Shown here piece after piece: positions 204 through 64,000 of a stretch of DNA of 64,000 nucleotides; position 1 is the stretch's first letter, and every line of letters starts with the position of its first letter. Made by a program: the position numbers and the translations under genes. This DNA comes from Amoebophrya sp. A120 (Eukaryota > Protista > Dinoflagellata): the NCBI GenBank assembly GCA_905178155.1, contig CAJINV010000005.1, forward strand, positions 7,934,515 to 7,998,514, in the 5' to 3' direction. The notes below the pieces were generated by a model, which saw only the letters and a list, made by a program, of their open reading frames with translations, did not search any database and had not been told where the DNA came from.

Positions 204-3200
204 ATCTTTCCGTCTGTACATGGTTGGGTTAGTAGTGTAGAACAAGTTTCGGAAGGGATCATTCACCGCTAGCGTGCTGGCACAGAGGAGGGATGACCGT
301 TGCTCCTCTTGCAGCTCCGAAGCGGTGGACGATGAAGACTTAGAACTACTCCTGCACCACTGCAGTGGTTGTCTTCTCTTCTCATACTCTTCGACATCGT
401 CCCTCCTCGACACAACATTCGTCCGCTGGTATTCCAGCGCGTTGAGCCAACTGGTGCGGTTGTTATCGCAAAAAGGGTGTTCTCGGAAGGGCGGGGAGTA
501 ATACGCGTGAGGGAAGGATGAACCCTCTTGCTCAACATTATCACCCTCTTGTTCCTCATTCTCACTTGTCTATCCAAGAAAAAAACATTGTAGGTGTAAC
601 TTTTCTGGAGGAAAAGCATTACAAATTTGTGTGGCATGACAGCAAAAACCTGTCACGCGCAGATAGTACGGGAAAACACCCTTTAATGGACCCTGCGATG
701 CATGCCAAGCATGACAGACGCAATCATCTTGCATGTTGCGCGTCACAAATTTACACTAACAAGGTTTTTTTCTTGGATATTGTCAAATCGAAGTACAGTG
801 CCAGAGACATGGGAGGCGGTTCGTTGTGCTGGACGGAGGTAAGTAGTTCGTAATACGGCGGGCCATATCACTTGCAAAAGTGTCTGGGCCTGGAAACTTG
901 TGATGCTGGGTGGCGATGATTGAACATACTCCTGAGTGCGACCAAGCATGACAAATTTTTCGGACACTTCCTCATGCATAGTGCGCATGAGAAACTGCGC
1001 TTTTGCATGACAAAAGGAGGCTCCTTTTCCTGGTCATGCAATACAGATTTTACAGGAATCCAAGCCACGCAATACAGGTTCCACTTTTCCAGACCCAGAC
1101 ATATTTGCAATGCATACGCCGTAGAAAAGTTTATGCCGCAGGTGCACCATGTCCACTCTCGGTCTGTTTATGCGAGCAGTAGATGTTGTAGTTCTTGCGC
1201 CGCTGTTGCTTGTGCTGCTGGTACTGTCGCTTGATGCCACAGAAGAGGTACTAGCAGCACTCTCCTGTTCGTCGTCGTTTTCATCTTCTGCAAGCAGTTC
1301 CATCGCTTCTTTCAACCTGAATTTCACCAGCGATTTCGGCCTCGAAATGATTTCCCAATCATCCTCTAAGAACAGAATGAACTCCGATCTCGTGCTGCGC
1401 ATCGCGCAGGAGGCAAAGGCCTTCCCGGTTCGCATATACGTGGTACGGGAGATCTTGATATGCGTCTCCGGCCACTTGTAATCGTGGATGGGAAGCTGTT
1501 TTAAATTGTACTTTCTCAAAATGTGCTCGCGCCACTTTAGCTCCGGATTGCGTATTCGTCGGGTAAGTAGTTTTGTGCGCCGCCGAACAGGAGGAGGAAG
1601 AGTACCGGAAGAAAGTTCACCACTTTGATGTTGACCATGGTTTTGTTGCCCTTCTTGATCTCCAGCGGCCTCGCCTGAATTCATTTGCTCCTCTCCTGGT
1701 ACTTCTACACCCTCCGCTGTACTTCTAGTACTTTGCGCGTCCTCTTCTACCTTGGGCTGCTGGTGGCTTGTAGTCTCTTCTGCTGGTTCATCATCTTCTT
1801 CGACCTCGACGTCGTATCCAAGAAAAAAACTGTGTTCGTGTAGGTGTCTTGACGTGACAGCATGACAAATCTGTTCTGCATGACAGACAAAGCCTGTCAT
1901 GCGCAGCTAGTAAGTGAAAACACAAATGAAGTACGACTTCATGGTTGGCTAGCATGACAAGTGTAACAGTGTTGCACACTTTGCATCACAGACTTACACT
2001 TACACAGTTTTTCTCTTGCATACCTCGTATTCCTCGTCCACAAACTCATCCGCATCCTCCAGAAACATCAAGTATTTTTCCCGTGCCATGTATCAAATGT
2101 AAAAACGTCTGGGTCTGGAAACTTGTGATGCTAAAAGTGAACGAGAGTTCCACTGCAATACGGAGCCAAGCATGACAAAATTTTTGGGCTCCTATGTGTT
2201 GCGTGTCCCGCATGGCAAACTGCGTGTTTGCATGACAGAAAAGAGGACCGCTTCGTGCCCATGCATCACAGATTCTTGAGTCATGTCAGACAAGCATGAC
2301 AAATCTCAAAATCTTCCAGACCCAGACACTTTTGCATTTGATACCATGTCCAGAAGCCCCATTTCCTTGTACGTCCGCAAGGTGTGCTCGAACGTTCTCG
2401 CCCCGTTCCCGTACACCATGCAGAGGGAGAGGGAGGAGGTGGATTTTTTGTCGCTATTTGCATCATTCATTTCCGCATCAGAAGTTGTTCTTTCGTTTGT
2501 TTCCTCATCAAGATGATCTTCGGCCTGCTGCGTAGTCGTTCCACTTATTTGTTCCGCGTTTATTTCAGGTGTTGCAGCTTCCGCTTCCGACATTATGTAC
2601 TCTTCATACTTCAACTCCTCCCGTTTTGTCAGCGTGTCTTCCCCGTCACCATACAACAGCCTCTGCCACGCGTTCAGTTTCCGGTACATCCGCTTCACCA
2701 TGTTAGTGAACTATCAAATGCAAATATGTCTGGGTCTGGAAGGTAAGAACTTGTGATGCTAACTATGGACGCTAAAAAAAATTGTATTGCATGACCAGCA
2801 AGAGGAGTCTAGTTTGTGCTACGCGGGGAGGACGTTTGTCATGCGGAGAAGGCATCAGAAAGCCCTCTAAAAATCTGCGATGCTACGTCGTGCATTACAG
2901 ACATCCTGGGTCATGCACAATATGCATGACAAGTCTCGGAATCTCCCAGACCCAGACCTTTTTGCATTTGATATGAACCGCGGGACATCGAAAATAAAGG
3001 GCAGAAACTCGTCCTCTTCGGGAAGATTTATTTCTCGTTCTGATTCGTGACCTCCCGTGTCGACGACCTGGGGCTCCCGAGAAGATGAAGATGGCCGCGT
3101 CGAGGATTCGGATGCAGTATCAACCCCGTGTGAAGATGACTGGTGCTCTACTACTTCGCCTGTGGTCTGCTCCATTCTCTGCTCTCCAGATACATCGACC

Positions 3201-4616
3201 TCTGCTGCAGCGGGCACTTGTGATATTACCGCGGAAGTTGTAGATCCTAACATATTATCGCCGTTCTGTTCCAAGACCTCCCCCAACCCGGTGCTGTCGT
3301 CGTAGTTGGCGGTGCTGGAAGTTGTTTGGTCGTGGTGCTCTTCTCCACCTGAAAAAGATTCTTGTTCTCGTCCGCTTTCAACAACACCGTTCTCGGTCGA
3401 AGATGAAGAACCTGCTCTCCTCGTCGCCGCATGACCATACAGCGCGTCCCAAACCTGCCGGCAGTCCAGCTCGGTGGTGTCCAAAGACTCCACATACTCA
3501 ATAACCGCGGGAGCCCACTCTTTCCACAAGACCAGCCAATTCTGCAAATCGACGTAATTCTGCTCTCCTAGGTCGTGGGCCTCTAATGTGATTTTGGGTG
3601 CTAGATAAGGCAGAAACTTCTTTCACCGAGAAGGCAGAACGTCGGTAAAAGTAGAATGTTGACGTTGAGCAACAGCATGACAAGAGCAGTATCCTTTCCT
3701 TGCAAAACCGCATCACAAAACGGAGGTACAACATGATGAAGATGATCAAAGATCATTTTATACCATAAATGCTCCCGACGATGGTCGCCAGATTTAGGGC
3801 CCCCACCGGACAGGACCTCGCGACATCGTCAAACGTGTGTTCGTTGCGAAAATTTTCCACGAACAATTGCTGTGCGTCCACAAAATGGAAGTCCGCGATT
3901 TTTCGCATACTCCGCCAACAGTGGTAGCCCATCGAGTGGACGTAGTTAGGCCAAAAGATGCGGTTCTGGTCGCATTTGCAGAAATTCTCAACCAAAGGGA
4001 GCAGAAGCCGGGCCTTTTCGGGTAGACGTTCATCTTCTTGCGGGAGCTTCTGTTCATCAGTTGCTGCAACTGCTTCTGAATTATGCTGATCTTCTTCTTG
4101 TTGTGCCGGAGTAGTGTGAACATCCTCGTCTGATGTCGTTATTATTTCATCACCTGGAGGTGGTCGTCGTGGTTCTTCCTGCGCCAACGGTGAGGTCGAA
4201 GTAGTTGTGAAGAGGAGATGTAGTTGAAACATCAGGCAGTAAGACGCTGCAGCCAGTCGCCGGAAACGCCGAAAAGATTTTGTTGCGCGGGAGGGCCTAC
4301 TACTTCTGAGGGGAACTACAACTAAATTTCTTCTGCAGTAGTTGTTCCTCCGCAACTGCGTAAAAATTAGTCGATCAGGTTCTGGGGGTGTCGCTTTAAT
4401 TCGTGTTCGCCGTTTATAATTTCGACGTACGGGAAAGAGATTACCTGAACAGCCGAATGGCGAAAGGTGCGACAAGCTGGCAGAATTTCTTGCTGCTGTT
4501 CTTGGTGTCGGCGAATTGTTCGAAAAATAACCATCGCGTTCCTGTGCTGTCTTCCTCTCGACGCGCGAAGAAATTTCTTCTACGCGGACGGGATCTTCTC
4601 CGCTGCTAGTCTGCAT
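1..4616 (-). CDS. Multi-exon gene, putative GT-A-fold glycosyltransferase (3' end runs off window)
   Basis: ORF pieces 3753-4616, 2867-3547, 2306-2701, 1034-1900 and 141-413. Joins across elements at 866 and 571 were checked and are in frame (YGPPYYELL..LTSENEEQ). Motifs SLCMVYGNG and EFILFLEDDWEII (DxD-like after a hydrophobic strand). Start codon and the intron at about 3623-3760 are uncertain. Confidence 0.6.
571..779. mobile_element. Introner family C
   Basis: TIR TATCCAAGAAAAAAA; flanks TTGTC/TTGTC; removal restores frame. Confidence 0.92.
866..1116. mobile_element. Introner family A
   Basis: TIR ..TGCAAA..TGTCTGGG(T/C)CTGGAA; flanks GGCCA/CGCCG (3/5); removal restores frame. Confidence 0.9.
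1815..2022. mobile_element. Introner family C
   Basis: TIR; flanks CGTCG/CCTCG. Confidence 0.9.
2091..2343. mobile_element. Introner family A
   Basis: TIR; flanks CCATG/CCATG. Confidence 0.93.
2712..2973. mobile_element. Introner family A
   Basis: TIR; flanks TGAAC/TGAAC. Confidence 0.93.
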
Positions 4617-7337: not shown

Positions 7338-10300
7338 TCACCCGGCGATCATCGCTACTATGTAGAGCAAAAAGGCCCCGCACATTCCCGCTATCACCAT
7401 CTTCAACTTCATATTTCTCCACTGGATGGCCCTGCGCAGGTCGACGGACTGGTGTTTATTTTGGAGGGATGATTGTATGTTGTTATGCAAGAAAAAAACT
7501 GTGTTAGTGTAAATCTGTGATGCACAACTACATGCATCAGAGTTACGCCTGTCATGCCAGACAACCATGAAGTACTTACTCTTTTCACGTGTGTTCCCCC
7601 TTACGAGCCGCGCATGACAGGCTTTCTCTGTCATGTAGAGCAAATTTGTGATGCTGTCAACCAAAGAAAGTTACACTAACACAATTTTGTTCTTGGATAG
7701 TTGTGAGTTGTTGTGTACTATCCACATGTGGCCATGCGGCGCATGACAAAGTTCAGGACAACTCGGTGTACTTCCTTCTGCGTCCACTAGTATGTTGCAT
7801 CTAATCAAAATTCCTATACCTGCTTCAGAAACTGGTCCGCCTGCCTGCTCATGTTGTCTGTCCTCTGCTCCAAATTCTCCAGGTTGTGATGTGTTTCTAA
7901 AATTCTCCGCACATTGTCCTGCATGTTCTCCTTCAACTCTTCTACTTTTCCCTGCATATCCTGAGGAAAACCGTCCCCACTCGTCGCTGTCCAGAGTCAC
8001 TGAAAGACTGGAAACTTAGCAACACAAAGACAAATTCAGTAGAAGTTTTGGGCGTCACACATGACAAGTTGCTGTCTGTTGTGTACTAGCGCAGCTTCGC
8101 AAGGCCAAACGCATCACAAATCCGTCTGCTCATCCCGTTATACAGAATTACAAATTCCAACACACGCATAGAATTGGAATTGCCTCTCTTCATGGGGATC
8201 ATGCGCATTACAAACGTTCCTGCGATTACAAAACTGCATGACAACTATGGGGTCGTCGTGAGGACGTTTTTACATTAGGATACTGCACCTCAAATATACA
8301 GAAAAAAAACTAGGCAAGTGTAAACTTTGTAGGAAGAGCAGCATCACAAATTCGTTTTGCATTACAGGGAAAATCTGTCATGCGCAGCTAGTACGTAGAA
8401 ACACGCATGAAAGTAGCCTGTGAGGCAGATCTAGCATGCCAAGTATAACAGTTTTGCATTTCCTGCATCACAGACTTACACTCACATAGATTTTTTCTTG
8501 CATATCAAAAGTTTTGTCCCGGTCCGCGAGCTGGTAGCGCTTGATGATCTCCTATCCTGAACAAAAACATCCCCACCTCATAACCAAGTATGGTAAATGT
8601 GCAACACAAATGTCCAAGTTTTGGGAGTTGCGCATGACAAGTTTCGATCTCAATTGTAGTGCTGGTTAGCTGCCCTCCGCATGATGAGAGAGCCAGGCTC
8701 TGATCCTGTTTACAGTATTACAGATTCCAAAACACGTCGATTTGCAATGCCTCTCATGGAGATACGCATTACAACTGTTCAGTTCCTGTCAATGTCATTG
8801 CGCATTTGCATGACAACTCCGGGGTGGGGACGTTTTTGTTGAGGATATCTCCCGAACCGGCTTCTTCAGCGGCTTGGTCAGTGAGAGCGAGGATAGATGG
8901 TGCAGGGAATCGCCCTGAGGTAGTTTTTTGTGCGATTTTCATTTCTGCATGAGAAATAATTGCGACATGGCTCCTGCATCCTGATATCCTAGAAGCAGGA
9001 GGCCTACGATCATCTATAAACACCTGCTCGTCGGCGGTGTCCTGGAGGTCCTGAGTTTCGACATCAGAATGATCAAGATCAGAACTCATTGTCATAATCC
9101 CGTATGATCTACAAATCAAACCGCGTGATGTTGAGATAAAAACCGTACTTACTACTATTAAGTAACACATACCTGCGTGACGTGCACCCGTTCCAAAACT
9201 TCGTTTAAGCACGCGTACGCCAGTATCAAATGCAAATATGTCTGGGTCTGGAAGGTTGGAAGACTTGTCATGCACGTTTTGCATGAGCGATGATGCTTGT
9301 GATGCATGCCCTAGCATCACAATTTTTTTCGGGGCTTTTTGATGCCTATTCCGCATAACAAATGCCTCTTCGCATGGCAAAAATTGCACTCCCTTTGCTG
9401 CTCATGCAATACAGTTTTTTTTGGAATCCAAATGCAGCATCACAAGTTGCATTCTTCTAGACCCAGACATATTTGCACTTGATAGCCAGCCGCTCCGGGT
9501 ACCCGGCGTCCCGAATCCCTATTGCGTACAAGCAATGACTATGCATAGCAAATAGGTGTCTGCGTCTGGAAATAAGCCCGAGCTTGTCGTGCTTGTCTGG
9601 CAAGCCTGGAAAATGAAAATCTGTATTTTTGCATGATCGAGAAATATAACAACTGCAGCTTCTCGAAAATGCAAGAAAAATTGTCATGCTTATTTGCGGC
9701 ACGACTTCCAACTCCTGTTGCAATCCTTCACAAGAACTCCGCGTCACAAATTTCCAGACCCAGGGAAAAACCAATTTGCCATGCGTAATGGCTGGAAACC
9801 CCGTTACCCGCCATGACAAACATGTTTCCCTGGCACGGGTACTCGAGAATCACCCGGGTTTTGAACTCCGCATTTGTTATATCCTCAGTAAAAACGTCCC
9901 CACACCAGAGTTGTCATGCGAATGCGCAATGACAGGAACACTTGTAATGCGCAGCTCCATGAGAAGAATTTCCAATCGTGGTGGTAATGCTGTAAACAGG
10001 ATGTGAAAGCGGCTTTCTCATGCGGCTTCTCTCGCCAATCAGCACAACACTGCAGAGGAAAACTTGTCATGCACAGCTTCCAAAGCTTGAAGATTTGTGT
10101 TGCTAGATTCCCAACTTGACCATGCTGGCATGGGGACGTTGTTACAAATGATATGTTATGCCCCGTTGCTGCTGGCAGGACTGGAGAAATTGCCGCTCAA
10201 ACTGTTGCTTTTCTTGGGACGCGATTTTACCTGTGAGGATACAATGAAAGTAGATTGCGATTTATTCTTTGGTCGATTACGTAATGTGTTCGTGCTTGAA

Positions 10301-12793: not shown

Positions 12794-13026
12794 CAAAATT
12801 CCTATACCTGCTTCAGAAACTGGTCCGCCTGCCTGCTCATGTTGTCTGTCCTCTGCTCCAAATTCTCCAGGTTGTGATGCGTTTCTAAAATTCTCCGCAC
12901 ATTGTCCTGCATGTTCTCCTTTAACTCTTCTACTTTTCCCTGCATATCCTGAGTAAAACCGTCCCCACTCGTGGTCCAGAGTCACTGACACACTGGGATG
13001 AACTTAGCAACACAAATTCAGTAGAA
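12794..13026 (-). pseudogene. Duplicated fragment of the VAMP7-like gene (SNARE exon plus one end of the adjacent introner)
   Basis: Near-identical to 7806-8044; flanked by a 32-bp direct repeat at 12747-12778 and 13035-13066. Confidence 0.88.
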
Positions 13027-34880: not shown

Positions 34881-35221
34881 CGCTATATCTACCCCGAGCG
34901 CGAGTGCTGTTGATGTTGCTCGAGAGACAAAGAGCTTTCGCACCATGGGAAACAAAAGCTCCGCCGGTGCAAGAGCGCAGAGCCTGCCAAAGCGTCCCGC
35001 GGCGCTTTTGTCAAGTGCCCGCCCCGCGCAAAACCGCCGTGGGCGTCGTGATCCCTCCAGATCGCGGCGCCTGGGGCAATTTGCCCCATTGGGCCCCCTG
35101 CGGGCTTCGGTGCACAATGCTGAAGCGCGGCGCAAGCCATTGGGCCCCCCTGAGGGCAGGAACACCTGCTCCTCTTCAAATTCTCCGCAGCAGCGTGGTC
35201 GTGTTTGTGCTCACGCGAGCA

Positions 35222-43826: not shown

Positions 43827-46800
43827 TTACTTCGCCTCGATCCGGATTTCGTCATGGACGTGCTTGTATGCATTGCAAATATCCACGGATCATGTCTGGA
43901 AAGATGCGAGCTTGTGATGCGCATTTCACATCACACAAAAATCTGTCATGCATGGAAGCCAACACTTGCACAAATTCAGGCCACTGAAAGAAGGGCTTAT
44001 TTGTCATGCGGATTACAACGCATTAAGACATCTACTCACTTGTTCTCGAAACCTGTGAAGATGCTTATGCTAGGGCGTCGTGCATGGTAGACCTTGTGGG
44101 TCATGATGCCAAAGCTGCATGATCACAAACCTTTGCATTCTTCCAGGTCGTGTCCAGACATTATATTTATGCATTTGATAGCTTACCCGAGTCCCGCACG
44201 TCCCACAGGTCACCGGCCAAGCCAAGGTAGTAATCCCACACAGCTGTTTTGACAATTTTTTCGTGTGGTAGTTTCGTACTTATCTTTCGCACCACGACTC
44301 TGAGGACGCACGACTTTGAATTTCATCTGTTCCGAAATGAACCACTGCATCAGATAATTCACCAGACAACAAATCTTGTTTATCCCTGTCGTAGTACTAC
44401 ACATTGACCAGTACTAGATCTTTGCATTCAATACCGTTCTACCACAACAACTTGTGGGCGACGGGCACCCGTTTTGCAAAAATCACGAGATCAACATCTT
44501 CTTTATCATGACGTCGATTTCAATGAAGTACTACTAGACGATGAAAATGAAACATCATATTAAATAAAAATGTATTCTACTCTACCGGCGACGTTTTGCG
44601 ACACCTTCTCGCGGTACTTTTTCTATCCTGAGCAAAAACGTCCCCACTCCAGAGTCAAGATGGGGATTTCGCAACACAAACGTGGAAGTTTTTGGAGTCA
44701 CGCCTGACAAGTTAAAGTCCGTAGAGTAGTGCAAGTTAGCAAGGACAGCCGCATTACAAATCCACCGGCTGATCCAGTTTACAGCATTACAAATTCCAAA
44801 ACACGCCTGGAAATTCCCATCATGGGGATGCGCATGACAAATGTTTTTGTCATTGCAAATCTGCATGACACCTCTGGGGTGGCGAAGGTTTTACAGAGGA
44901 TATTTTCATGTTCATGTTCACGTCCTGCATGCCCTGCATGAACCCCACCAAGTCCTTGGACGAGTGCCAGCTGCACAGGGTTATCAAATGCAAAAATGTC
45001 TGGGTCTGGAAGATTGCCAGGTTTGTCATGCATTTTTCCCATGAGGCCTGATGCCTGTAATGCATGTTCTAGCAACACAGATTTTTAGAGGGCTTCCTAA
45101 TGCCTGTTCCGCATGAGAAATACCCTCTCCGCGTAACACAAACTGGAGTCCTGTTGCTGGTCATGCAATACAGATTTTTTTGGAATCCAAAGACAGCATT
45201 ACAAGTTGCAATCTTCCAGACCCAGACATTTTTGCAATCCATATGGGTCATCAGTTCCTCATGAGACTCGGGATCCATCGTTCGGCCCATCGGGTGTCCC
45301 ATCATTTCCGCAGTGGTCGCGTCGAAGGAGACCTTCTCGTACGGGTGCGCCGTGTCTTTGTTCTGCACCAGAAACGGCTGGACCCAGGGCCCGGTTTCCT
45401 GGCACACCGCGGACTTCCCGCGGTTGTAGAGGAGATACGCGACCTGGAATAATTAGAAGATTTGTCTTGCAAAAATACTATCAGGCAATAGGTTTGCATT
45501 GCGCAAATACTATCAGGCAATAGGTTTGCATTGCAAAAATGCAAACTATCATGAGTTGTGATCGTTGCCAGAACTTTAACTTTTGTCTTGTTGTTGAACA
45601 ATTATAGTACCTCGTAGCAGACCGCGTTCTCGTTGAACTTCGTCAACTTATACTCTTTGAAATCCACCTCATCGTCATTCACGATATCTCCCAGACTGAA
45701 CCCCACAACTACCGCCGGACACAGCTTCTATCAGAGTGAAACGCCCCGCGTCCCCATATCAAAAGCGGAAGTTTGTGATGCGATTTGTGGTCACCTATCG
45801 ACTTGTACTATTGCTAGAAGGCCAACAAGAAACGCAGTCGCGGCCTCGTTTGCAGGCAATTTGTGCTGCTGTTTCCCCCTTCCACCTGCCTCCTGTGAAG
45901 CTGAAAACGCAAGGCTTTAATATTCCCACGCCGCCCAGCACTACAGTGTCTACATCTTTCCCTTCTAGCATGACAAAATGATTTGTGTACACAAATCCCG
46001 CATCACAGACTTCAATTTTGATTTCATTGATACATTTTGACAATCACAGGGAAGGGGGATTTCATTGTGATAGCTTCGGGAAGTTCTTCATCTCCTCAGA
46101 CCACCGGTCGCCGAGAGTTTTCTTCTTGAGTTATCAACTGTAAAAATGTCTGGGTCTGGAAGAATCCAACAAAACTTGTCATGCTGATTTTGGATGCTAA
46201 AAAAAAATTGTATTGCATGAGCAGCAAAGAGAGTCCAAGTTTTGCTACACGGAAAGCGCATTTGTCATGCGGTATAGGCATCAGGAAGCCCTCACAAAAT
46301 CTGTGATGCTAGGGCATGCATCACAGACATCAGGAGTCATGCAAAATGTGCATGACAAACCTGGCAATCTTCCAGACCCAGACATTTTTACATTTGATAT
46401 GAGTTTCACAAACACCACGTCCCCCAGCATGAAGGGTATCAAATGCAAAAATGTCTGGGTCTGGAAGAATGCAACTTGTAATGCGTATTTCAGAACACAG
46501 AAAAGCCTCTCATGCTTACGTAGCAAAAGCTCCAACTTTTTGTCAGCAAAATAGGTGACTTGTCATGCGGATTCGGCATTGCGGAAGGTTCTCGAAACCT
46601 GTGATGCTAGAGCTTCCATGCCAGACCTTCTGTGTCATGCAAAAACAGCATGACTCTTCCAGACCCAGACATTTTTACATTTGATAAAGGGCATCTTCGC
46701 CCGGTTCTTTTTGAGGAAGTCAAAAGTGCACTCCCCGCAGTAGTACGGCGCGGTCTCTTTCAACGGCTCTATTACAATGAAAAATGCCTCCACCCCACAC

Positions 46801-49800
46801 TTGGCAGCATTTGTATTGCATACCTTTCCAATACAAACATTTCCCGTCTTGCATATCTCAGCATCACAAATTTTCCATGCTGAATAGCTGATATTTGTGT
46901 TGCCAAGGGGACCAACAGCAGCCGGGCCTGTTATGCACAAGGCACCTTGCGCACCTAGATTCTGCATCAGAAAGGCTCGCAATCCTTTCATGCAAGACAA
47001 AAAGCTTTCATTTGGAAACTTTGCATGAGAAACTTTTGCAAATTCAGGGGTGGGGGCATTCTTCATTGTAATAGGCCCGGATGCATGTCCAAGGCTCCGG
47101 AACGCGACCTGGCACATGTCCTTGAAGATCTGCAACTGTTCCCTGTTCGCAGCACTCTCCTCCCGGTCAAAGTGGCAGTACTCGGTAATCTTTTCGAGTG
47201 ACTGCGAAAAGCCCATTTGCAACAACGACTTCCGCATGCAGCCGGCGTGGATGGCTTTTCCGCCCTTTATGGATTGCAGAAGCATCGTACTAGTATAAAT
47301 TGCATTACAAATTAGCCCAGCATTAGAAATTGAATTTGTAATGCTGAATTACATTGACAAAGAGATTTGTAATGCATAAATGCAATTACTACGAGTACGA
47401 TACTTTTGCACAGGATACACTTCTTGTTGTCGCAAATCATCAGCGGGTTCTTGTCGTACCCAAAGGTGAAGTTGCAGCACGAGCACAAGAAACGCTTGTC
47501 GTACATCAGCTGTTGGACCTGTTCCGGATATCCTGAGCAAAAACGTCCCCACCCCATAGCTGTCATGCAATTCTGCATGCTCAACATGTCTCTCATGTGG
47601 AGCCCCATGCGAAGCATTGTCTAGTTGTGTTCTGGAATTTGTGATGCTCGAACCAGCATGATGGACTACATCTGTGATGCTGCTGAACTAGCTAAACAGC
47701 ATTACGCTACGAGCCCAAATTTCTCATGCGCAACAGCCAAAGTTTGTTGATTTGTCTAGCAGATTTCCCATCTTGACTATGGGGTGGAGGCTTTTTTACT
47801 CAAGATACCGGAGTCAAGTTGTTTTGCTGTTGGTTATTCAAGGCCGTGTTGTTTTTCGACGCCATCTTCATTTTCATCTTCATTTTCGACGCTATCAAAT
47901 GCAAGTATGCCTGGGTCTGGAAACTTGTGATGCATGTCAGTGGACAGAAAGCGCACTGTAAAGCACCGCCAAGCATGACAGATTTTCTCGCGATTCTGTG
48001 TTGCGTATTCCGCATGAGAAACATCGTTTTTGCATGACAGACAAGAGGAGGTCTTCCGATGGCCCTACGCAATACAGAGTTCAGAGTCATGCCAAACTAG
48101 CATGAGAAGTCTCGAAATCTTCCAGACCCAGACATATTTGAAATGCATAGACGCAGTAGCAGTCGCATTCTCCATGGCCTCCTTTTCTTCCAGCAACGCC
48201 AAGACGTCTTTCGTGGTATCGTAGTACCGGGCCATCTATCATGTGCAAAAGTTGTATCGTACTCGTACTATTTGATGCAAATATGCATGATAAATCCTTA
48301 TCCTAAGGTAAAACAGCATTACAAATTGCAAATTTGTCATGCTAGGAAAATTTGTATTGCTATTCCTGCTAGTACGATGCTTTTGCACTGCATACCATCT
48401 TGCGGTCCGGCTCCCCCTGCTCCTGCGCGGTGTTGCAATCCGCGTCCTTCGCGGCAACATCAACCCGATGCGTCGTTATCACGAGAAAAAAGTCAAAGTG
48501 TTACAGTTACACATTGGATTGCAAGCTCAGCATGACAGACAACCTCTGTCATGCCCGAAATGCTTCCGAGCTTCATTTCATTCGTGTTTTCCCTTATGGT
48601 CTGCGCATTGCAAGTTTTCCCTCTCATGCAGAGGAAATTTGTGTTGCTGAATTTCCAACAAATGATGTGTAACTGTAAGACTTTTTTCGTGGGATAGTCG
48701 TGGTTTCCTCGATAGTAGTCGTGGTCAACAGCGTCTTCTTTTCCGATGATTTTTTGCAGCTTTTACTCGTCGTCGTCCCGTTCGGGCTCGCGGACGGTGT
48801 GCAGTCTTCGCGGCTGCCTTCAATGATCGGACTCAGCTTCTTGTCCATGGACTCGTTCAACATGGACGGAACCCCGTTGTCGAGAAACTGCGGTTCCAGC
48901 TGGTCAACACCAGCACTGGGCGTGGTAACACTATTTGCAGCACCTGCACCGGGTGGAGCCTTGAAAAGCACCTTGTTTTTCTTCTTGTTCGTCTTCGCCA
49001 GCGTTAGGCGTTCTTGCAGAGAGTGTTATGACAGTGCACCTCTCCCCCTCCTCCTTCTTTGTATGACATGAACGGCAATACAAGCGTCAGCAAGAGTGCC
49101 GGTTTTGCATGACAACTTTACACTGGAGTGTAGTAGTGCTAGTTGGGCTACCAGGAGAACTTGTCATGCACACAATGCCAGCATAAGGCAGCGACTGGAT
49201 TCGGGGTTTTGCATGACAAAGGAGGGGGAGATGGAGTCGTGCGCTGTCATAAATCTGCAGAGAGGTTCAACACGTTTTCCTCATCTTTGTCGATATGCAG
49301 TGCAAATATGTCTGGGTCTGGAAGAGTCGGGGCTTGTCATGCACATTTTGCATGACCCCTGAGGTCTGTGATGCAGCTGGTGCTATGATCACAGATAATT
49401 TTTTGAGAGCTTCTTGATGCTAATTACGCATGACAAATGCCCTCTCCGCGTGCCAAGAGCTGACTCCTCGTCTTGCTGCTCATGCAATACACATGTTTTT
49501 GGAATCCAAATGCAGCATCACAAGTTACATCCTTCCAGACCCAGACACTTTTGCACTTGATAGTCGACCCCGTCAAACAGTCCCATCTCGGAGTCCGGCA
49601 TCAGCGAAATCTGCACCGCACCACCGGTATCCTGTGCAAAAAGTTATTGTACTCGTAGTGATTGCATTTATGCATCACAAATCCCTTTCTTAAGCTGAAA
49701 CCGCATGACAAAGTCCATTTGCAATGCTGAGCTAATTTGTATTGCAAAACCACGAGTACGATAGTACTTTTGCAATTCATAACCAGCGTTACCCTTAGCC

Positions 49801-52800: not shown

Positions 52801-55800
52801 CCCTCTGTTGCATCACAAGTTTCATCCAGACCCAGACATATTTGCAGTCCATAGCACCATCACTGCCTCCCGATTGATGTTCTTCCGACAGTTTCTTCGC
52901 CTGTTCCTCGATCTGTTTCTTAAATTCCTCGTTGTTCCGAAACGACGCACTCATTTCGTCCGCCAGTTTCGCAATCATCGGCGAGCCCTGCGGAGACCCC
53001 TCAATCATCGCAGACTGCTCCAAAGCGTAGGATTCGTCCAACTTGCTAAGCGCAGCCGGGTCCAGTTTCATGATAGAGGGGGCCGGAGACTGGTCGACGA
53101 CGCAACCGTCAACATTATTTTCTTGCAGCGAACTGAGGTTTTCATCGTTGTCGTTCCCTTTATCCCCCTGCTTCGAAAGAACGCTGAAATTGTTGCTGGA
53201 CTGTTGGCTGTTTTGACCCGAGAGGAGAACATCACAGCGTTCCGCATCATTCAGGGACTGCTGCTGCTGGTCGACGACCGAATTGGAATTTTCCTGCTTG
53301 TTGTCAACAAAATTATCCGAAGAACCCAAACTTCCGCGCACTTGTTCCGAATCCCGCTTCTGTTTCTTTGCAGCTTTTTCCGGGCGGAGTAGTTCGGTGA
53401 AACCGGAAACATTGTGGGAGGAAATGGTGTCGTCCATATCTTCCTCGGACTCCCGTTCAATCCGTTCGTTACTGATATTGACGTTCATGTTGATGTTGAC
53501 GTGGTCCTCGCGGTGGTTCAAATTGTTTTTCTGCTCGACGAGCGCCGCGGAGGGGGCGAAGTGGAGTTGGACTTCATCTACTACCTCCGTGGTCTTCTTC
53601 AGTGAGTGTTCTTCCAGGACATGCTCTTCATTCTTCAACGCCGCGACCAATGGGACAGAATCGGCAGGAGCAGATTTCTCGTCGATCTTTTGACGTTCCT
53701 CATCGTCCTTCGCCTGTAGTAGTTCGGAGGCAATTTGTTGATTTTGGTTCTGTTTCATCTTGACGTCGTTTTCATCTTCTTTCAACATGTCCACATCCTG
53801 GTCGTCCGCCACGACAGCTGGAGCATTCGGAACTACTTGCAGCTGCTCTTGCTCAACATCGACATCGACATCATCCGGGGTACTTTTATCATTTTCGTCT
53901 CCCTTCTTTTCCAAAACCACGTCGACGGCTTTGATATTACCCTCTACTTCGGACGAAATCTTCGCGGAGGATTGTTCTTGATCATGATCTTCCCCTTCGT
54001 CTACCTTCTCGCCAACCGCAGCAACATCCTTCATCTCCACGTCCTGGTCGAACTCCAGGGAGTTCTCGACGACGGGCTTGGGTTCATCACCAGAGCAGCC
54101 TTCGACATGATCTCCCTGCACGACGCCCACCGCTGCGGGGGAAGAAGTCTTGTTTTCTTCTTCGTCCTTTTTCATCATGTCGGTCGGCTGGTCCGGGTGG
54201 TCCTGTTCCCGTTCTTCTTGTTCCACCTCCATCGCGTCCTCAGAAGAAGTACCCTCCGCCTTCTTCTCCACCGGCGCCTCCAACGACTTTTCCATATGAA
54301 CCGCAAAAGGAAAAGCATCGCACTCGTACAAATGCATTACAAATTTCCTCAGCATGAAAAATAAAATTTGTAATGCGGATTTGCCTTAAAAACAAGATTT
54401 GTAATGCATGACTGCAATACGAGTACGATACTTTTGCACAGGATATTCCAACAAGCTGTGCAATTCCAGCACCGAATGATCGTCCGAGCTGTCAAGAGCA
54501 GCTTGCTGCTGCTGCTCCACCACATCGGATGAGCAATCATTGTTGTTGTCCGGTTTATTTTTCGACTTCGACTCCTCTTGCTGTTCTGACAGGTCTTGTT
54601 TTTCGGACAAAGCAGCACTTTCATGCTGTAGGGAATCACCGCTTTGTTCTTTCAGGTTGCGACTCTCGTCCATCACCTGTAGGTTGTTGCTCATCATGCT
54701 TTCCGGCTGCTGGTGCACCATGCTCTGGCTCGTCCCAACTGCAACATCGTTAACGTCGCTCACCTCGGACTGCAAGAACATCAGCGCGTTGTGATCCTCA
54801 GACTGCTCGGATTGCAGCAGGATTTCGGAGCCGAGGGCAAACGAGTTGTTGTCGCTCCCAGCAAGAACTTGTTGTTCTCCAAACTGCGCAGAGCTCGCGT
54901 TACTGCCGTCGAGCAGGGAAGGAGCCACCGGTTGGGAAGGAAAGGGGTTGTGGACTTGGTATTGTTGATCAACATCGGCATTATTTGTACCTCCATTCTC
55001 CATCTCCTCTTCTTGTTCCGGCACAACAACGCCATTAGAATCGTCCGAGTGCTTAAACTTCAAAATCTTCCGGGCCGGCACCCCCTGGTTCCGTTTGTAC
55101 ACGTCCATCTGGGGGAGCATGGACTTCGATTTGTTCGATTGTTGCGAGAGGAAGTTGTCACTGTTTGCGGATCCATTTCCGGACGAAAAATTCGAGTTCT
55201 GGCTTTCCACGTACATCTCCTGCAGGTACTTTTTCACCTTTCGGGAGTCGTATCCTATGGAAAAACATCCCCATTCCATAGCTGTCGTGCAGATCTGCAT
55301 GCTCAAAATGTTTGTCATGCGGAGCCCCATGAGAAACATTTTCTAGTCGTGTTTTGGCTTTTGTAATGCTCCAATCAGCATAGTAATGCTTCTGAACGAG
55401 CTAAACCGGATTCCACTAGGAGATCAAACTTGTCATGCGCAACAGCCACAGCTGGCTGATTTGTGTAGCAGATTTCTCATCTTGACTATAGGGTGGGGAT
55501 GTTTTTACGTAGGATAAATCGACCGTCGTTTTCATGTTCTGCTGCTCAAAGGGCAAAAAAGGAAAAGAACTGTTCACCTGCGAATTGTTGCCAGCACTGT
55601 GCGGACCGCCAGAGGACGCCTGAGAGGACAAAAGCGCCTGCGAAGAGGTGGATCCGAGCTGCAATTGCTGCGAGTTATTTTGTTGCTCCGATAATTGTAT
55701 GAACTGCAAAAGTATCGTACTCGTAGAAATGCATTACAAATTGACTTAGCATTACAAATTGAATTTGTAATGCGGATTTGCCTTGAAGCAAATATTTGTA

Positions 55801-58800
55801 ATGCATAAACGCAATTAGTACGAGTACGATACTTTTGCACATGATAAATTGTTGCGACGAGATGAAGAAGTTGTTCGAAACTTGACTCATCGGGAACGCT
55901 TAACTTATCAGGAGGAAAAAGGTCCCCACCCCAGCTTGTTATGCAAATCTGCATGCCAAAAAAGTTTCTCACGCGAAGCCCCATGAGAAACATTTTCTAG
56001 TCGTGTTGTGGAGTTTTCGCGTCTATAACCAGCGCGATATGCTAGATCTGTGATGCTGCTGCGCAGTACCTCAACAGGATTACACTACGAGGACAGACTT
56101 GTCATGCGAAACAACCAAGGCTGGTTGATTTGTCTAGCAGATTTTCCATCTTGACTCTGGTGTGGAGACGTTTTTACTCGGGTTATGACTCGACTGCGTT
56201 TCTTGCTGGAGGTGCTCGGGAAACTCCACTCCAGGCTTGTATTTCTCCATCAGTTCAGCTTCCTTCGCTTTGAACGTCTTCGCTAACCCTAGCACCTCGT
56301 CCAAGTTGGCGAAGGGAAACAGCTTATCCTGTGCAAAAGTATCGCACTCGTATTGCGATCATGCATTACAATTTTTTTTCTGAAAGCAAATCCCCATTAC
56401 AAATTTAATTTCTCATGCTGAGGAAATTTGTAATGCATTTATACGAATACGATACTTTTGCAATTCATAGAGCTTCTTCGATTTTGCCCGTTTGGCGCCC
56501 TCCGAAACGACTTTCTCTTGCAGGTACCTGAAGTATAGTTTTTGGAAAACGAAAACTTAACTTGTCATGCCGACCACTGGAACGCATGGCAGGTAACTAC
56601 TCTACTAGACTACCTTCGCGAATGCAATTGCAATTCAATATGCGTTACAGCAACATCGAAAGACAAACGAAGCCGCCATTTTTCTATACCATTCCCGAAA
56701 CGCGTAGTACTTGGTGCAGGTGTGGTACCACAACTGCTCGCATTTCCGATCCGAAAACAGGGCCGTAAATTCTTCCTGACTGCAATTCGCCTGGGTCCAC
56801 GGGGCGGTTGTGATGCCGGCCTTCTATGCATTGCAAATATGTCTGAGTCTGGAACGAATAATGCAAGATTTCTTATGCTCGGCAAGCATGAGACTCTGAA
56901 GCTTGCCATGCTCGTCACCCAAAAATATCACGCTTCCGTCATGCAAGAGCGCGCTTTGTCATGCAAAATAGACAACACGTAGCACGACCTCAGAAACTTG
57001 TCATGCTGCACAGTCAGTTGTGTCGCTAACCAGCATCACAAGTTTCCAGATGACCCAGTAGAGGACCTATTTGCATTTGATACCTTCTCCAACCAGTCAA
57101 ATTTCATGTCGAAATCGCGGTCCCAGTCTATCGCAAGAAAAAATAAGTGTTACAGTTACACATTGTCATGCAAGACTGGCAACAGAGACAACCTTTCTCA
57201 TGCAGGAAATGCTTCGGAGTCTCGTTTCCTTCCTGTTTTGTTTCCCTTATGATCTTCGCATTACAAGTTTTTTCTGCCACACAGAGAAAATTTGTGATGC
57301 AGAAACTCCAACAAAATTGTAAGTGTAAGTAACACTTTTTTCTCGTGATACAGTAGAACGGGCGATTAATGTTGCGTTTCAAGGGCGCGCCTGTAATTTG
57401 AATTTCTGATGTGTTGACAATAATTTTGCAAGACAATAAATCATCTATGCACGTCCCCACCTCTAGCATCTCTAAGTGCATCATTTGCAAGGCAAATCAG
57501 TCATTGAAATTTATCCAAATTCTAGTACCGCCAAACCCCGCGTCCTCCTCCAATTCTTGACTCATGGCGGGAAAGCAAATTTGCGCGACGCTGGCGTCGA
57601 TGTAGTTTTCCCAGGAGGGAAGAGTTGCCCAGGCGTTTCCCATTTCCTCTATGCATTGCAAATATGTGTGGACACGCCTGGAAGATAAAACTTGTGATGC
57701 TGCTTAGTTTGTGAATTGTGGGAAGATAGACCACACTGCAAGACGCAGCCACGCACGACAACGACAAGTTATTCCTGGGCCCTCCTGTCCGTCATGTTTC
57801 GCTTCCCGCATGGCAAACTGCGCTTTTGCATGACAGGCAAGAAGAGGCTCGTGATTTTTTTTCTGCTCACGCATTACAGCTTCAAGATCAAGAGTCATGT
57901 GAGACAAGCATGACAGACTTGCACTCTACTTCCAGATGCCCCAGACATCATATTCACAGTGGGTATCCTCAAACACGGTGGTATCCAGATCGTTCTGCAT
58001 GCACTGGAAAAAGTCGGCCATTGTGTTCTTGTCGCAAAAGGACAAAGTTTTCAGCTTCGCGAGCAACTCCCCGGTGAGGCGCCCCTTCTCAAACTGCTCT
58101 TCCAGGAACTGGAGGGCGAAGCTGTAGTAGTTTTGACAGGGTTCATTAGGTCGTGGTTATGCATGACAAACTGCATTACCCGAGCGGAACACGCATCACA
58201 GTATTAAATTTCAAGCAGTACAAGTAAATGAAAATAGCAAAAATACTATACTTCTTGAAGCACAGGCACTCCATAAACGCAACCGACTTCTTATCTCGCT
58301 GTCCCTCCTTCGGCATCTGCGGGTACAGTTGCTTCTCCAGAAAGTCCTCGTCGAGCTCCGACTCCGTCTCCAACATGCTCTTGCTAGTATAGAAGAGTAG
58401 AAAAAGCAGTTGAAAATGTTTTGTCATATGCATGAAATCAACCCATGTAAAAATCAACGATCTCTATTTTGATTTCAACCTGACATCACAGTTCTTTCTA
58501 CGGCACAGAGCAGCAACTTGCGCCGGGAATCAATCGAGAAAAAACAAAGTTATACGATTATGCGTGCAACCTGCACAGTCGCAAAGTTTCGTAACTGTGC
58601 GTGATGGCTGTAAATGATGTAACACTTTCATTACGTCTTTTCTTTTATCTAGCCCCGCTAAATTATAAAACCTTTTCGCAACATCTTTCAAAATATTCAC
58701 AATCATGCAACAACTTTTTCTTCCATTCATACAGCATCACAGCGGTCAAATCTCCATTCGTCGCGATGTCCTCGTTCACCTCGCGCTTCAAAATTCCCCA

Positions 58801-59945: not shown

Positions 59946-62900
59946 TCAGTCCGCCTGCTTTCCTCCATTTTTCGACACCGCCCGGCTGTGGTCCCGCTTA
60001 TTGTTGTTCCCCTCCATAATATCCTCGTCTTCTTTGTCAAGACCTACTTCTTTCCGCCCGCCTCCAGTAGAATCCTTCGATTTCTCATTTGATTTTTCCG
60101 ATTCATTCGTATCAACTGCAAAAATGTCTGGGTCTGGAAGAATCGAACTCGTAATGCTGTCTGCGGATTCTATAAAATATCTGTGTTGCCTGAGCAGCAT
60201 GAGGAGTCAGTCTTGGGCACGCGGAGAAGGCATTTCTCGTGCGTAATTAGCATCAATCAAGAAGCTCCACTCAAAAAACCTGTTGTGCTAGCACCAGCAT
60301 CACAGACCTCAGTGGTGATGCGAAATGTGCATGACAAGCCCCGACTCTTCCAGACCCAGACACATTTGCAATGGATAATTCGGGCTGGCGACCAAATCTC
60401 CAAGCGCATCGTCCTCGCCAAATTGCTCTGCCATCAGCCGGTTCAAACGCTCCTCTTCGTCATCCTCGTCGGCCTGGATTAGAATTGTGAAGCAAATTAT
60501 GCATGAGCATGTGCATGACAGAGTCCGAAGTAAAATTTAGAAATGTTTCTCATGCATAGCTCGCTACGCTAGTCTCATCTGTGATCCGCGAGAAAATGAA
60601 AATGGAAATGCAAATGCAGCTGGTGCAAACGCAAAGCAATAAACTCTATACCTCCATTTCCTTCATCTCCCGCAGTTCTTCAAATCCTTTCGCATCGTAT
60701 CCTTTGACTTTCCAGAGAAACTCCAAGAAATCCTTGCTCCAATCTTCCTTCACCTCGTCCTGTTCGTCGCCCTCCTCGACATACGGTAGTTGATAATTGC
60801 TCATCGCGTTGTTGACGAACCGGTCCTCAAAAGACTTCTTGTCCCGCTCCACCAAGGTTTCAAACATGTACTCCTGCGTGAACAACCTCTTCAGCTGCCA
60901 CATAAACACTGTATCGTACTTGTTCATGTACTCTTCTTCCAAACCGCTCTCTCCCGTCTCGTCCATTTTCAAAATTTCCGTGAACTGCTCAATCGACTTC
61001 AATTCGTGCGTCTTCCGCTTGTAATCCAGAAAATGCTTCGACCGCTTCTGCACCCGCTTGTTCTGCTTCTGCTTCTTCAATTTCCTCTTCCGCTTCTTCT
61101 CTTTCTTCAACTCCTGCAGCGATCTCCGGTGCTTTTCGCGGAAGGCAGTAACCGTCGTGACTTCGTCGATGATCATTTTCTATCAACTGCAAATATCCCT
61201 GGATGTCTGGGAAGTTGCGAGATTTGTCATCCTAGTCTGGCATGACTCTGAACTCTGTGTTGCGTCACCGCAAAGAGCTTCTTTCGCCTGTCATGCAAAA
61301 ACGCAGTTTCTCATGCGGCGTACGCAACGTAGAACCGTGGAAAAACTTGTCATGCTTGGCAGCGCATTACAGTGTGTTTTCACTATTCCCGTCCTTGCAT
61401 CACAAGATTCCAGACCCAGACATTTTTGCATTTGATATCTTCCCGGTGCCGTTCTGCGAGTCGTTGCTGAACCGCTTATTTGATGTCGTGTGGTCCTCAT
61501 TCCCCGAAGAAACGCCGGAGTGGCCGTTCATCAAGGTGCTACTTCCCCCTCCATGATGTCCATTCACCATGGGCTGCGGATCCGTCTCCCCTCCCTCATC
61601 CTCGCTGGAGCTCAGACTGTCCGAATCTTCACTATCACCGAAGCTGTACTCCCCGACAGAGCTGTCTAGGTCGCTCAAGCTGCTCTTATAACTCGCTCAG
61701 GTGGTACAATCACAGAGGCTGAATTAGACTTGTCTTCCATAGTGAGCATGACAGACTCGCAGAGCATTCGACTTTCTGCAATACAAATTTTGCCAGATCG
61801 TAGCGCGGTTTGGGACAACTCCGGTACTTGTCATGCGTAATTTTATGCCAGTTGGCTAGATAGTGCACTTCTTGCATCACAGATTTCCATATTCTAGTGT
61901 AACGTTTGAGATTGTATTAACACTTGGGCGGGTCATAGCTGTCCAAATCTTCATCTTCCGAGTTTTCGGAAGACCGGAGGGGATTGTTGTTTCTGATGAA
62001 ATCGTTGTTCATTTGTTCCTCGTCCATATTAACATGGTTCTCACCGTCGTCGTCGTCGTCATCCCCCGCCGAGCTGCTCATGGCCTCCAGCATATTGTTG
62101 TGGTGGTCCATTTGATCATTTTGAAGATTACTATGCGGGCCCAATAAGTTGTTTGTCCCTTTAATATTTTTCCGTTTCTCTGTGCTGCCCCCGATGTTGA
62201 AGCCGGCATCTATCCTGAGTAAAAACGTCCCCACACCAGAGGCAAGATGGGGATTTCGCAACACAAACCTAGAAGCTTTGGGAGTCACGCATGACAAGTT
62301 GCACTCCGTAGTGCAGTGCAGGATAGCAAGCGCAGCCGCATCACAGATTCATCTGCTTATCCTGTTCATAGCATCACAAATTCCACAACACGTTTGGAAA
62401 TGTTTACCATAGGTATGCGCATCACAAATGTCCTTGCCATTGCAAATCTGCATGACAACTCTGGGGTGGGGACGTTTTTCCTCAGGATAGCCTCGTCCAG
62501 CTCGTCATCCGAGTCCGATAATTCAGAAATTTCGTCGGTGTTATCGCAAGAAAAAATTGTTTCACTGTAAACCTGTGATGCATAAAAATGGAACACAGAA
62601 ATATTTGTCTTGCTACACATGCAAGAAAGTGGATTTTTAGCTGTGTTTTCCCTTCGGAAGCTTGCATGGCAAATTGGATCTGTCATGTAGAGCAAACCTG
62701 TGATGCAAAACCTGCAAAATCCTTACAGTGAAACGCTTTTTTCGTACGATAGGTGTCGACGTCGCTGTACTCTGAAAAGGTGTCCTGCTCTTTCTTGTCT
62801 GTCGCACCGCCTCCTGCTCCGGGGGAGAGATGACCGAGTGCAGCAGCAGCATTTGCAGCTCCTGAGGATCCTGGTCCACCTCCAGCTGCTACAAGTTGTG

Positions 62901-64000
62901 AAAATGCAACACCGGAGTCCTGAAACGTTTTCACCATCAGCCCGGTTGCCGTGTTTTGCACTAAGCCCGTAGTTGTATGATCCGCGGCTGCTGCGTTGGT
63001 CGCTTGCTATGCACTGCAAATATGTCAGGGTCTGGACGATTGCCAGGTTTGTCATGCATATTTTGCATGGCCCATGATACCTGTCACGCATGGCCTAGCA
63101 TCACAGATTTTTGGAGGGCTCCCTGTTGCCTATTCCGCATGAGAAATGCCCTCTTCACGTGAGACAAACGCGACCCCTGCTCTTGCTAGTCATGCACGAC
63201 AGATTTTTTTGGAATTCAAAGACAGCATCACAAGTTGTGACCTTCCAGACCCAGACTACGTATTTGCATTTGATACTTGCTCCGCTGGTTTGAATCCGTT
63301 TTCCACCAGCCACTTGTCGTGCGACTGTTTCCAGGAGTCGAGACTCTGGATGAGCTGCGGCTTGCTGGGATCGGCGTCCAACTCTTTGACTAACTCTTCC
63401 CCGACTTCATCCTGCCACTTGCTGTAGAAATCAAGCTTCTTCTTCTTCTTTTTCGTGGGTACTAAGGAAGCTGTAATTTTTTGCCCAGCAGCAGCTTTGG
63501 AGGTCGTGGCAGCTTTATCTGCTGCTGTTCCGTCGGCCGTGGTCGTGACAGAAGATTTATTTATTTTCCCCGCCACCACCGAAAGCGCGACCTCTTCTTC
63601 CGCTTCCAGTTTCGGAAACAATTTTTTGTCACACACCGCGCCCATTACCGGGTCGCAGGTGCTGCCCCGCTTCCAACTGGTCAAAAATAACTCCGTGTTG
63701 AAATCTTTCAGCACCAGTACTCGCGCGAAGTTGGGGTCCACCGTGGACATAATGGCAACGCACTTTCGCTTCAGCTCCACGATTCCCTGTGAGACCTTTG
63801 TATCAAATGCAAAAGCATCGTACTCGTAGTAATCGCAGTCATGCACCATTACAAATTTTTTTCTTAACAAGGTCAATCCCCATGACAAATTTCATTTCTC
63901 ATGCTGAGGAAATTTGTCATGCATTTATACGAACACGATACTTTTGCAGTTCATACTTTGCCTGCTTGGACGATTTCTGGCCCATATTCGTGGGAAAATT
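59946..64000 (-). CDS. Multi-exon hypothetical protein with acidic and basic low-complexity tracts (5' end off window)
   Basis: ORF pieces 63256-63888, 62683-62961, 61917-62297, 61400-61678, 60646-61176 and 59946-60200 separated by seven elements and one GT-AG intron (~60474-60651). No recognisable domain. Confidence 0.7.
60110..60377. mobile_element. Introner family A
   Basis: TIR; flanks ATTCG/ATTCG. Confidence 0.93.
61181..61437. mobile_element. Introner family A
   Basis: TIR; flanks TTTTC/TCTTC. Confidence 0.88.
61687..61937. mobile_element. Introner family G
   Basis: TIR TATAACTCGCTCAGGTG/CACTTGGGCGGGTCATA; flanks GCTCT/GCTGT. Confidence 0.87.
62211..62489. mobile_element. Introner family B
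   Basis: TIR; flanks GCATC/GCCTC. Confidence 0.93.
62542..62751. mobile_element. Introner family C (variant)
   Basis: TIR; flanks GGTGT/GGTGT; opposite orientation to the 26541 copy. Confidence 0.9.
63008..63275. mobile_element. Introner family A
   Basis: TIR; flanks CTTGC/CTTGC. Confidence 0.92.
63801..63955. mobile_element. Introner family D
   Basis: TIR; flanks CTTTG/CTTTG. Confidence 0.9.

Follow-up and report, generated by a model that had tools for sequence, protein, structure and literature searches.

Paired octamer boxes in introner elements and canonical introns of Amoebophrya sp. A120

We analysed an octamer, TGT[CGA]ATGC (the box), in a 64,000 nt stretch of the genome of the dinoflagellate Amoebophrya sp. 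A120 (contig CAJINV010000005.1, positions 7,934,515 to 7,998,514; the window). A preliminary description of this DNA had reported the octamer from its introner elements and canonical introns. The actual unit is a direct pair of boxes 31–33 bp apart, which is absent from that description. As judged by sequence comparison, this unit is common to about 12 element families that have no other detectable homology; it recurs in the window as well as in a related assembly, of which 557 kb were covered. The box is likely a site on double-stranded DNA, independent of orientation, to which one protein binds in pairs, and it is not an obligatory RNA signal for splice sites or intron definition. Among the functions considered in the preliminary description, a double-stranded DNA site with roles both in mobilisation and in host introns fits best.

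The box and its paired arrangement

The box occurs 261 times in the window, 126 times on the plus strand and 135 times on the minus strand, whereas 8–16 copies are expected from order 1–3 Markov models of the window. Most copies (240 of 261) lie inside the 81 introner elements between positions 571 and 63955. These elements were curated by hand, are 145–401 bp long and are bounded by terminal inverted repeats (TIRs); at least one box is present in 79 of them. The density of boxes is 11.2 per kb in the elements, 0.43 per kb outside and 0.08 per kb in coding DNA. Thus both the repetition of the octamer across the introner families and its rarity in coding and intergenic DNA, as first described, were confirmed. 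The individual sites cited for it all read as given, except that TGTATTGC at 46209 is a one-mismatch variant outside the motif as defined.

The best form of the box is TTGTCATGCA with C, G or A at position 4. With any base allowed at this position, the window has 129 C, 82 G, 50 A and 9 T (n=270). In the related assembly the corresponding numbers are 871, 468, 320 and 25. This second data set comprises 156 loci with 557 kb of unique sequence, all from assembly JACKZZ01, which were retrieved by a TIR-plus-box pattern. A total of 357 elements was found de novo, inclusion requiring a match in four of the five bases of the target site duplication (TSD) or a strong TIR. The tetranucleotide CATG is over-represented 4.5-fold in the elements and still 2.8-fold after masking of the boxes.

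Boxes on the same strand are spaced 31, 32 and 33 bp apart in 19, 14 and 8 cases in the window (41 pairs), against 6 pairs at spacings below 31 bp. In the related assembly 102, 72 and 38 pairs (212 in total) have these three spacings. The pair pattern gave 38 matches compared with 0.00 in 100 shuffles. Among the 357 elements, a pair with no more than one mismatch is present in 65–100% of the copies of every multi-copy family, in contrast to less than 2% in shuffles. By frequency, a spacing of 31–33 bp ranks first, alone or tied, in 12 of the 13 family alignments and second in the remaining one. A distance of 31.5 bp corresponds to three turns of B-DNA. The general phasing of about 10.5 bp that had been put forward for an autocorrelation check is not seen: peaks at 10, 21 or 42 bp common to the families are absent, and the same-strand spacing of 31–33 bp alone is dominant.

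The number, order and orientation of the boxes vary among the families while the spacing is retained, and the orientation of the box relative to the tip of the element is not the same from family to family. After masking of boxes and tips, profile searches gave no matches across families apart from two sub-families of F4. Self-recovery with such masked profiles was low (20 of 38 to 26 of 40 members in the three largest families), so that deep homology could be missed; within this limited power, the families do not align as descendants of one ancestor. Viral contigs yielded at least 120 scattered single matches to the pair pattern, mostly with a spacing of 33 bp, which were taken as background. 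The GT-AG intron 45444–45610 has a segment of about 32 bp duplicated in tandem (at about 45475–45538), by which two degenerate boxes come to lie at a distance of 32 bp; such duplications may be a route to new pairs.

Rates of change and boxes in canonical introns

Changes were counted by parsimony on the trees of seven families. On internal branches the seven fixed bases of the box change 2.6–15 times less than the other internal columns in all seven families, and on terminal branches they change about half as much as other columns in six families. Position 4 changes at the pace of the other columns, with only 5 of 83 changes leading to T. A cis-element required for mobilisation would be expected to behave in this way, with strong constraint on the amplified lineages that is relaxed on the terminal branches.

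The age of the copies was assessed by their TSDs. Copies with a decayed TSD (74, compared with 268) show ageing of the TIR core (+0.023 to +0.026) but not of the boxes (+0.001). This contrast has a bootstrap P of 0.007, and of 0.018 when CpG columns are excluded. The F1 copies were partly ascertained by the TIR-plus-box pattern; the contrast with the TIR persists in copies not matching this pattern (P 0.035).

A motif-blind predictor proposed 188 candidate GT-AG introns and recovered all seven that are supported by RNA. Of these candidates 153 scored at least 12, and 147 introns were left after six with family matches had been removed. They contain 36 perfect boxes compared with 4.9±2.2 in shuffles, a 7-fold enrichment, whereas boxes with one mismatch are not enriched (96 vs 86±9). 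Neutral relics would be expected to consist mostly of damaged boxes, which argues that the intact intronic boxes are being kept or re-made and forms the main argument for a role in the host. The most enriched 8-mer of the 147 introns is GCATGACA (28 vs 1.2 copies), position 4 is C in 29 of the 36 perfect boxes, and six of the nine same-strand spacings are 32–33 bp. Outside the elements, 20 of 125 boxes have a perfect partner at 31–33 bp, compared with 0–2 in controls, a few of these 20 being situated in small or decayed elements. The enrichment of boxes outside elements is 7.5-fold in intron-like gaps, 1.4-fold in coding DNA, 2.3-fold in far-intergenic DNA and 2.8-fold at gap edges. The introns with pairs show no family homology once the boxes are masked and no convincing TIR.

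In the RNA-supported intron 58122–58251 (minus strand), which is single-copy and TIR-less, the boxes at 58161 and 58193 form a perfect pair (32 bp), and family homology is lacking when the boxes are masked. The gene for the Sm protein F (SmF; 22100–22645, minus strand) has two GT-AG introns. The predicted intron 2 (22180–22319) carries a perfect pair at 22252/22284 (32 bp). Intron 1 (22449–22588) has a box at 22478 and gives a weak family match after masking (E 0.03); it is possibly a relic of an element. The predicted intron 3601–3763 (minus strand) has boxes at 3675 and 3710, 35 bp apart. The RNA-supported intron 60474–60651 (minus strand), with a box at 60513, is also present in an orthologous locus of the related assembly (L182), and the surroundings of the box are identical in both assemblies. 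Hence the cited sites outside TIR elements do lie in GT-AG introns, but introns with a box are a minority: 26 of the 147 predicted introns have one and three of the seven RNA-supported introns have a perfect box, in one case as a perfect pair. The other four have none (58384–58732 on the minus strand, 44244–44585, 45444–45610 and 57391–57528), and serve as counter-examples to a universal intron signal. Together, the slower change compared with neighbouring positions and the enrichment in canonical introns support a protein-binding code under selection, as had been suggested; with the masked profile comparison, within its limited power, they go against the three refutations that had been named for it.

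Introner elements and their removal from RNA

In nearly all elements both ends have the tip TAT-N7-AAA, and direct repeats of 5 bp lie on either side. The TIRs, which had been called unrelated, thus have a tip and the 5-bp TSD in common in nearly all cases; the small families F6 and F7 deviate from this tip. The TSD matches in all five bases in 270 of the 357 de novo elements. The orthologous comparison was possible at one locus only, L182, which is about 94% identical to its counterpart in the window. The F1 element 60110–60377 is missing from L182, where the empty site has the 5-bp target once, which demonstrates the 5-bp TSD directly. Conversely, L182 (990–2100) carries two F1 insertions absent from the window. 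These differences indicate that the elements were recently mobile.

The pairs are found in families of different length. The F1 element 46132–46399 has two pairs of 32 bp, 46177/46209 (with TGTATTGC as the second box) and 46318/46350, and it leaves the RNA together with one TSD copy (273 nt). Spacings of 31 bp occur in the F2 element 24667–24875 (24805/24836) and in the spliced F5 element 55698–55846, which is only 149 bp long (55766/55797). The F4 element 27042–27354 has pairs at 27086/27118 and 27271/27303 and the F6 element 30673–30978 one at 30816/30848, all of 32 bp. In the F8 element 49027–49251 one box of the 32-bp pair has a mismatch; its TSD is decayed and was informative for the splice register.

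Among the joints listed from RNA-like contigs (15 of 88 and 15 of 107), 19 concern elements, located between 44618 and 57966. In all 19 the element plus exactly 5 nt is removed, with ends other than GT-AG. Five joints with partly mismatched TSDs narrow down the position of the cut, and a single register fits all 19: it starts one base ahead of the TAT tip and ends four bases past the far tip (N-TAT...ATA-NNNN). Consequently, the spliced-out unit consists of one TSD base, the element and four TSD bases, and the exon is restored exactly. With the cut one base before TAT the donor would read N-TAT, resembling the GTA(T/C) of the local GT-AG introns. For the runs compared, programmed DNA elimination of the kind known for internal eliminated sequences was rejected, since joined forms appear only in RNA-like runs; the DNA-like runs X1 and X2 gave only the unspliced form at six joints, in contigs, which drop rare variants. 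The RNA runs X11 and X12 (145 and 11 reads on the window) cover almost only element ends and were uninformative for splicing.

At least one perfect box is present in each of the 19 listed spliced elements, whereas an intact pair is missing in three of them. One of the spliced elements, the F1-like 57650–57965, has four perfect boxes and no intact pair at 31–33 bp and is a counter-example to an obligatory pair. Intronic boxes are divided almost evenly between the strands (22 vs 20), and their distances to the splice sites are scattered in the 147 predicted introns. Family F3 has its boxes all in one direction and is spliced in both orientations within one transcript: in the element 44624–44902 all four perfect boxes read GCATNACA on the plus strand, and in the oppositely oriented element 47529–47807 three boxes read TGTNATGC on the same strand. 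Covariation indicating a hairpin beside the box is absent, pairing of the flanks at –1/+9 and –2/+10 being below the shuffled level. Position 4 is complementary between the mirror boxes of F1 in no more than 35 of 127 copies. A hairpin-loop interpretation of the box was rejected on the basis of this rare complementarity and the lack of flank covariation. The lack of strand bias, the scattered distances, the splicing of F3 both ways, the missing covariation and the three elements spliced without a pair favour a double-stranded DNA site. The same scattered distances, both orientations of F3 and three pairless elements speak against a recognition signal of non-canonical splicing in the strict sense, another function considered at the outset, as do the four boxless RNA-supported introns and a cut that follows the TIR tips.

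Several further observations were made on the elements. Tip variants (positions 4–9) are common to F1 and F5 and mostly unequal between the two ends of one element, which suggests free exchange or no pairing requirement at these positions. We also considered the TIR tip as a variant box; this is unsupported, since tip positions 4–8 vary freely and the tips of F2, F3 and F4 are dissimilar. Some elements are situated inside apparent GT-AG introns: the F1 element 29720–29982 lies within about 29590–29990, a few bases from the apparent donor, and the F2 element 7484–7699 is nested in the apparent intron 7449–7819. The ratio of observed to expected CpG is 0.62 in elements, 0.96 in introns and 1.07 in other DNA; this depletion suggests methylation-linked decay of the elements. 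A gene for a C-5 DNA methylase is present at the related-assembly locus L140. A near-identical duplicate of about 180 bp (at about 7808–7990 and 12795–12990) is interrupted by an F3 element in one copy. The minus-strand gene at 23700–32200 is very dense in elements, and its exons appear ion-channel-like by eye. The GC-rich region 32440–35220, composed of tandem-unit repeats with two large inverted repeats at 33919–34400 and 34600–34880 and an N gap, is nearly free of boxes and unrelated to introners. Run X11, which bears the same species label, matches the window only at F1 element ends (45195–45233 and 46366–46400); the box adjoining its TIR suggests a more distant strain with the same F1 family. 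TIR-based patterns had no matches in viral contigs and prokaryotic genomes.

Proposed role of the paired box

As the explanation to which we give somewhat less than an even chance, and hold tentatively, we propose that one sequence-specific protein binds the paired boxes, that the elements need it in order to amplify, that the host retains the box in a fraction of introns as an auxiliary mark and that the cut is placed by the TIR hairpin. Two boxes three turns apart would be bound cooperatively by this protein on the same side of the helix. Either this protein or a transposase of shared specificity would gather the ends of the element into a mobilisation complex. The convergence of about 12 unrelated families on the box would follow from such shared mobilisation. 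In the host, the box would act as an auxiliary mark of intronic DNA at the DNA level, aiding transcription or co-transcriptional splicing without defining splice sites. It is the TIR hairpin that would determine these sites, N-TAT imitating the canonical GTA(T/C) donor. A bolder possibility, which we regard as doubtful, is that this eukaryote without detectable U1 snRNA marks its introns on the DNA: a host protein or a domesticated transposase on the pairs would recruit or license co-transcriptional splicing, and pair-bearing TIR elements would be tolerated either way round. If pairs make any TIR element a tolerated intron, the families would for this reason have converged, and old GT-AG introns would have been fitted with optimal copies.

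A number of results weigh against the proposed role of the paired box. On terminal branches boxes change by 3.3–4.9% in six families and by 7.9% in F4. Mismatches in the TSD (87 of 1735 sites, about 5%) correspond to a decay after insertion of 2.5–5%, which is near the terminal rate of the boxes; single boxes are therefore at most partly protected, and host constraint on any one of them is at most partial. When boxes were compared with other internal columns in the age test, the difference was seen in F1 (P 0.007), but not with all families (P 0.18) or with F1 excluded (P 0.77). For box decay, a comparison of 282 exonic with 36 non-exonic insertions showed no difference (P 0.19). Nor is the length of the spacer conserved more strictly within families than that of control intervals (225 of 838 vs 173 of 702 outside 31–33 bp). 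Most of the 147 introns are predicted only, and 121 of them (82%) have no box. Element-like flanks were detected at 3 of 34 intronic boxes, the remainder being near the shuffled level, and some intronic boxes may be relics diverged by more than about 40%. As to the mobilising protein, none of 96 scanned open reading frames (ORFs), from 398 ORFs of at least 170 amino acids, matched a transposase family, and a search for a long TIR-bounded autonomous element found none, its two candidates measuring 631 and 834 bp.

Four other explanations have to be weighed against the proposed dual role. We consider it unlikely that the box is solely a subterminal transposase site common to all families and that its occurrence in GT-AG introns merely reflects neutral remnants of old elements, of no use to the host. 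Common tips and the 5-bp TSD do point to one mobilising enzyme, and the constraint is strongest on amplifying lineages: T1, T6 and G7 change 8–15 times more on terminal than on internal branches, compared with about 2 times for other columns. The equal decay of exonic and non-exonic insertions fits as well, as does the insertion of an element into a canonical intron at 29720 (context score –12), and a precedent exists in the Lemi1 proteins, which according to the available text of PMC1636448 bind the subterminal repeats of Emigrant, a MITE (miniature inverted-repeat transposable element), cooperatively. Neutral relics, however, predict many more one-mismatch than perfect boxes, whereas only perfect boxes are enriched (7-fold). 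Moreover, perfect pairs occur in TIR-less introns without other homology, the enrichment is greater in intron-like than in intergenic DNA, boxes do not age with the TSD as TIR cores do, and the orientation of the box to the tip differs among families. That all families share one ancestor, or that the word arises from composition, is very improbable and in our view largely refuted. The families do have a common tip grammar, and the limited self-recovery of masked profiles leaves room for deep homology, but only the sister sub-families of F4 matched each other, box number, order and orientation differ while the spacing stays, shuffles yield no pairs, and ancestry alone does not explain why the box changes more slowly than its neighbours.

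The two remaining explanations differ in the molecule on which the box would be read. As a chromatin signal of gene bodies, it might represent a V-A-T-G context for adenine methylation or a positioning site for nucleosomes or DVNP, and elements bearing it would escape silencing; its restriction to introns would then simply reflect that it cannot be accommodated in exons. The order C>G>A>>T at position 4 equals the order SATS > VATB > TAT of AMT1-type N6-methyladenine (6mA) in the accessible part of PMC12695648, and the CATG excess in elements, the orientation independence and the three-turn spacing would suit a mark on DNA. We nevertheless judge such a signal improbable, because a 4-mer preference does not account for a specificity that extends to seven other fixed bases and one exact spacing, and a periodicity of 10.5 bp is absent. 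More improbable still is an RNA-level recognition signal of non-canonical splicing without U1, read on the pre-mRNA or on the hairpin of the element. The enrichment is biased to introns, U1 snRNA was undetected in A25 or A120 according to the portion of PMC7789003 consulted, and each of the 19 listed RNA-supported elements has a perfect box, although with 3–5 starting copies the survival of one box per element would be expected in any case. The symmetry between strands, the two-way splicing of F3, the variable splice-site distance and the missing pairing covariation all speak against it, as do the setting of the cut register by the tips at 19 of 19 listed joints and the four of seven RNA-supported GT-AG introns without a perfect box. 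For a likeness of the box to the sites of paired domains, the literature consulted gave no support.

If the proposed host role is true, the box would be a DNA-encoded intron mark that co-evolves with transposons; if only the mobilisation role is true, many non-homologous MITE families would have converged on one binding geometry. The results provide two handles, namely a bipartite DNA bait of 40 bp common to all families and one register of splicing that is anchored at the TIR tips.

The elements themselves are already known. Introners of A120 have been described as having inverted tips of TAT, seven variable bases and AAA, short direct repeats, non-canonical ends and a length of about 240 nt (Farhat et al. 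2021, PMC7789003, as far as covered here). The elements of the window agree in their tips, direct repeats and non-GT-AG removal from RNA. In the sections consulted of Gozashti et al. 2025 (PMC12130899), the A120 families are mostly TIR DNA elements of unknown superfamily, and the family lengths in the window (about 150, 210, 260, 280, 305 and 320) match rows of its Dataset file 8, of whose 58 A120 rows 19 were compared. Non-canonical introns are confined to A25 and A120 in the part of PMC12005148 that was available. From the consulted text of PMC7789003, more than 60% of the introns of these two strains are non-canonical and no U1 is detectable; how they are spliced, and what mobilises the A120 introners, for which no transposase was found, are stated there as open questions. 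What appears to be undescribed is the three-turn pair, the fact that canonical introns retain it, and the register of splicing. No shared internal motif or 31–33 bp pairing is mentioned in the covered text of PMC7789003, figure logos excepted, or of PMC12130899, and the 8-mer had no matches in the consulted content of 12 of the 14 supplements of PMC12130899 (files 13–14 excepted). A term search in PMC12166617 gave no matches, and the part seen of bioRxiv 2020.10.14.339549 does not mention Amoebophrya. A description of the motif or its spacing was not found in the literature, with figures, some supplements and subscription papers outside the coverage.

Subterminal repeats are also a feature of hAT and CACTA transposons. 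The boxes resemble the subterminal repeats of Emigrant/Lemi1 (PMC1636448) and the inverted repeat/direct repeat (IR/DR) structure of Sleeping Beauty (PMC5224488), as described in the excerpts compared, in being short, present several times per element and conserved in mobile lineages; cooperative binding is known there and proposed for the box. MITE and other TIR subterminal repeats belong to one transposon family each, whereas the box and its spacing span about 12 non-homologous families, and unlike such repeats the box is spread through the whole element and is intact in TIR-less host introns. In the nonconventional introns of euglenids the cuts lie at fixed distances from the complementary terminal motifs N3CDG...CHGN5-6 (Nomura et al. 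2025, PMC12501133, in the text available). The introns of Amoebophrya are similar in that the majority are non-GT-AG, with cuts at fixed distances from complementary terminal motifs, here N-TAT...ATA-NNNN. In contrast to the terminal signature of euglenids, the box is internal, independent of orientation and untied to splice sites. AMT1-type 6mA, according to the part of PMC12695648 consulted, lies in the linker DNA of transcribed genes with the preference SATS > VATB > TAT. Compared by sequence preference, the box shares with it the V-A-T-G core, the avoidance of T before AT and the association with gene bodies, but differs from this 4-mer preference in being a word of 8–10 bp that is arranged in spaced pairs.

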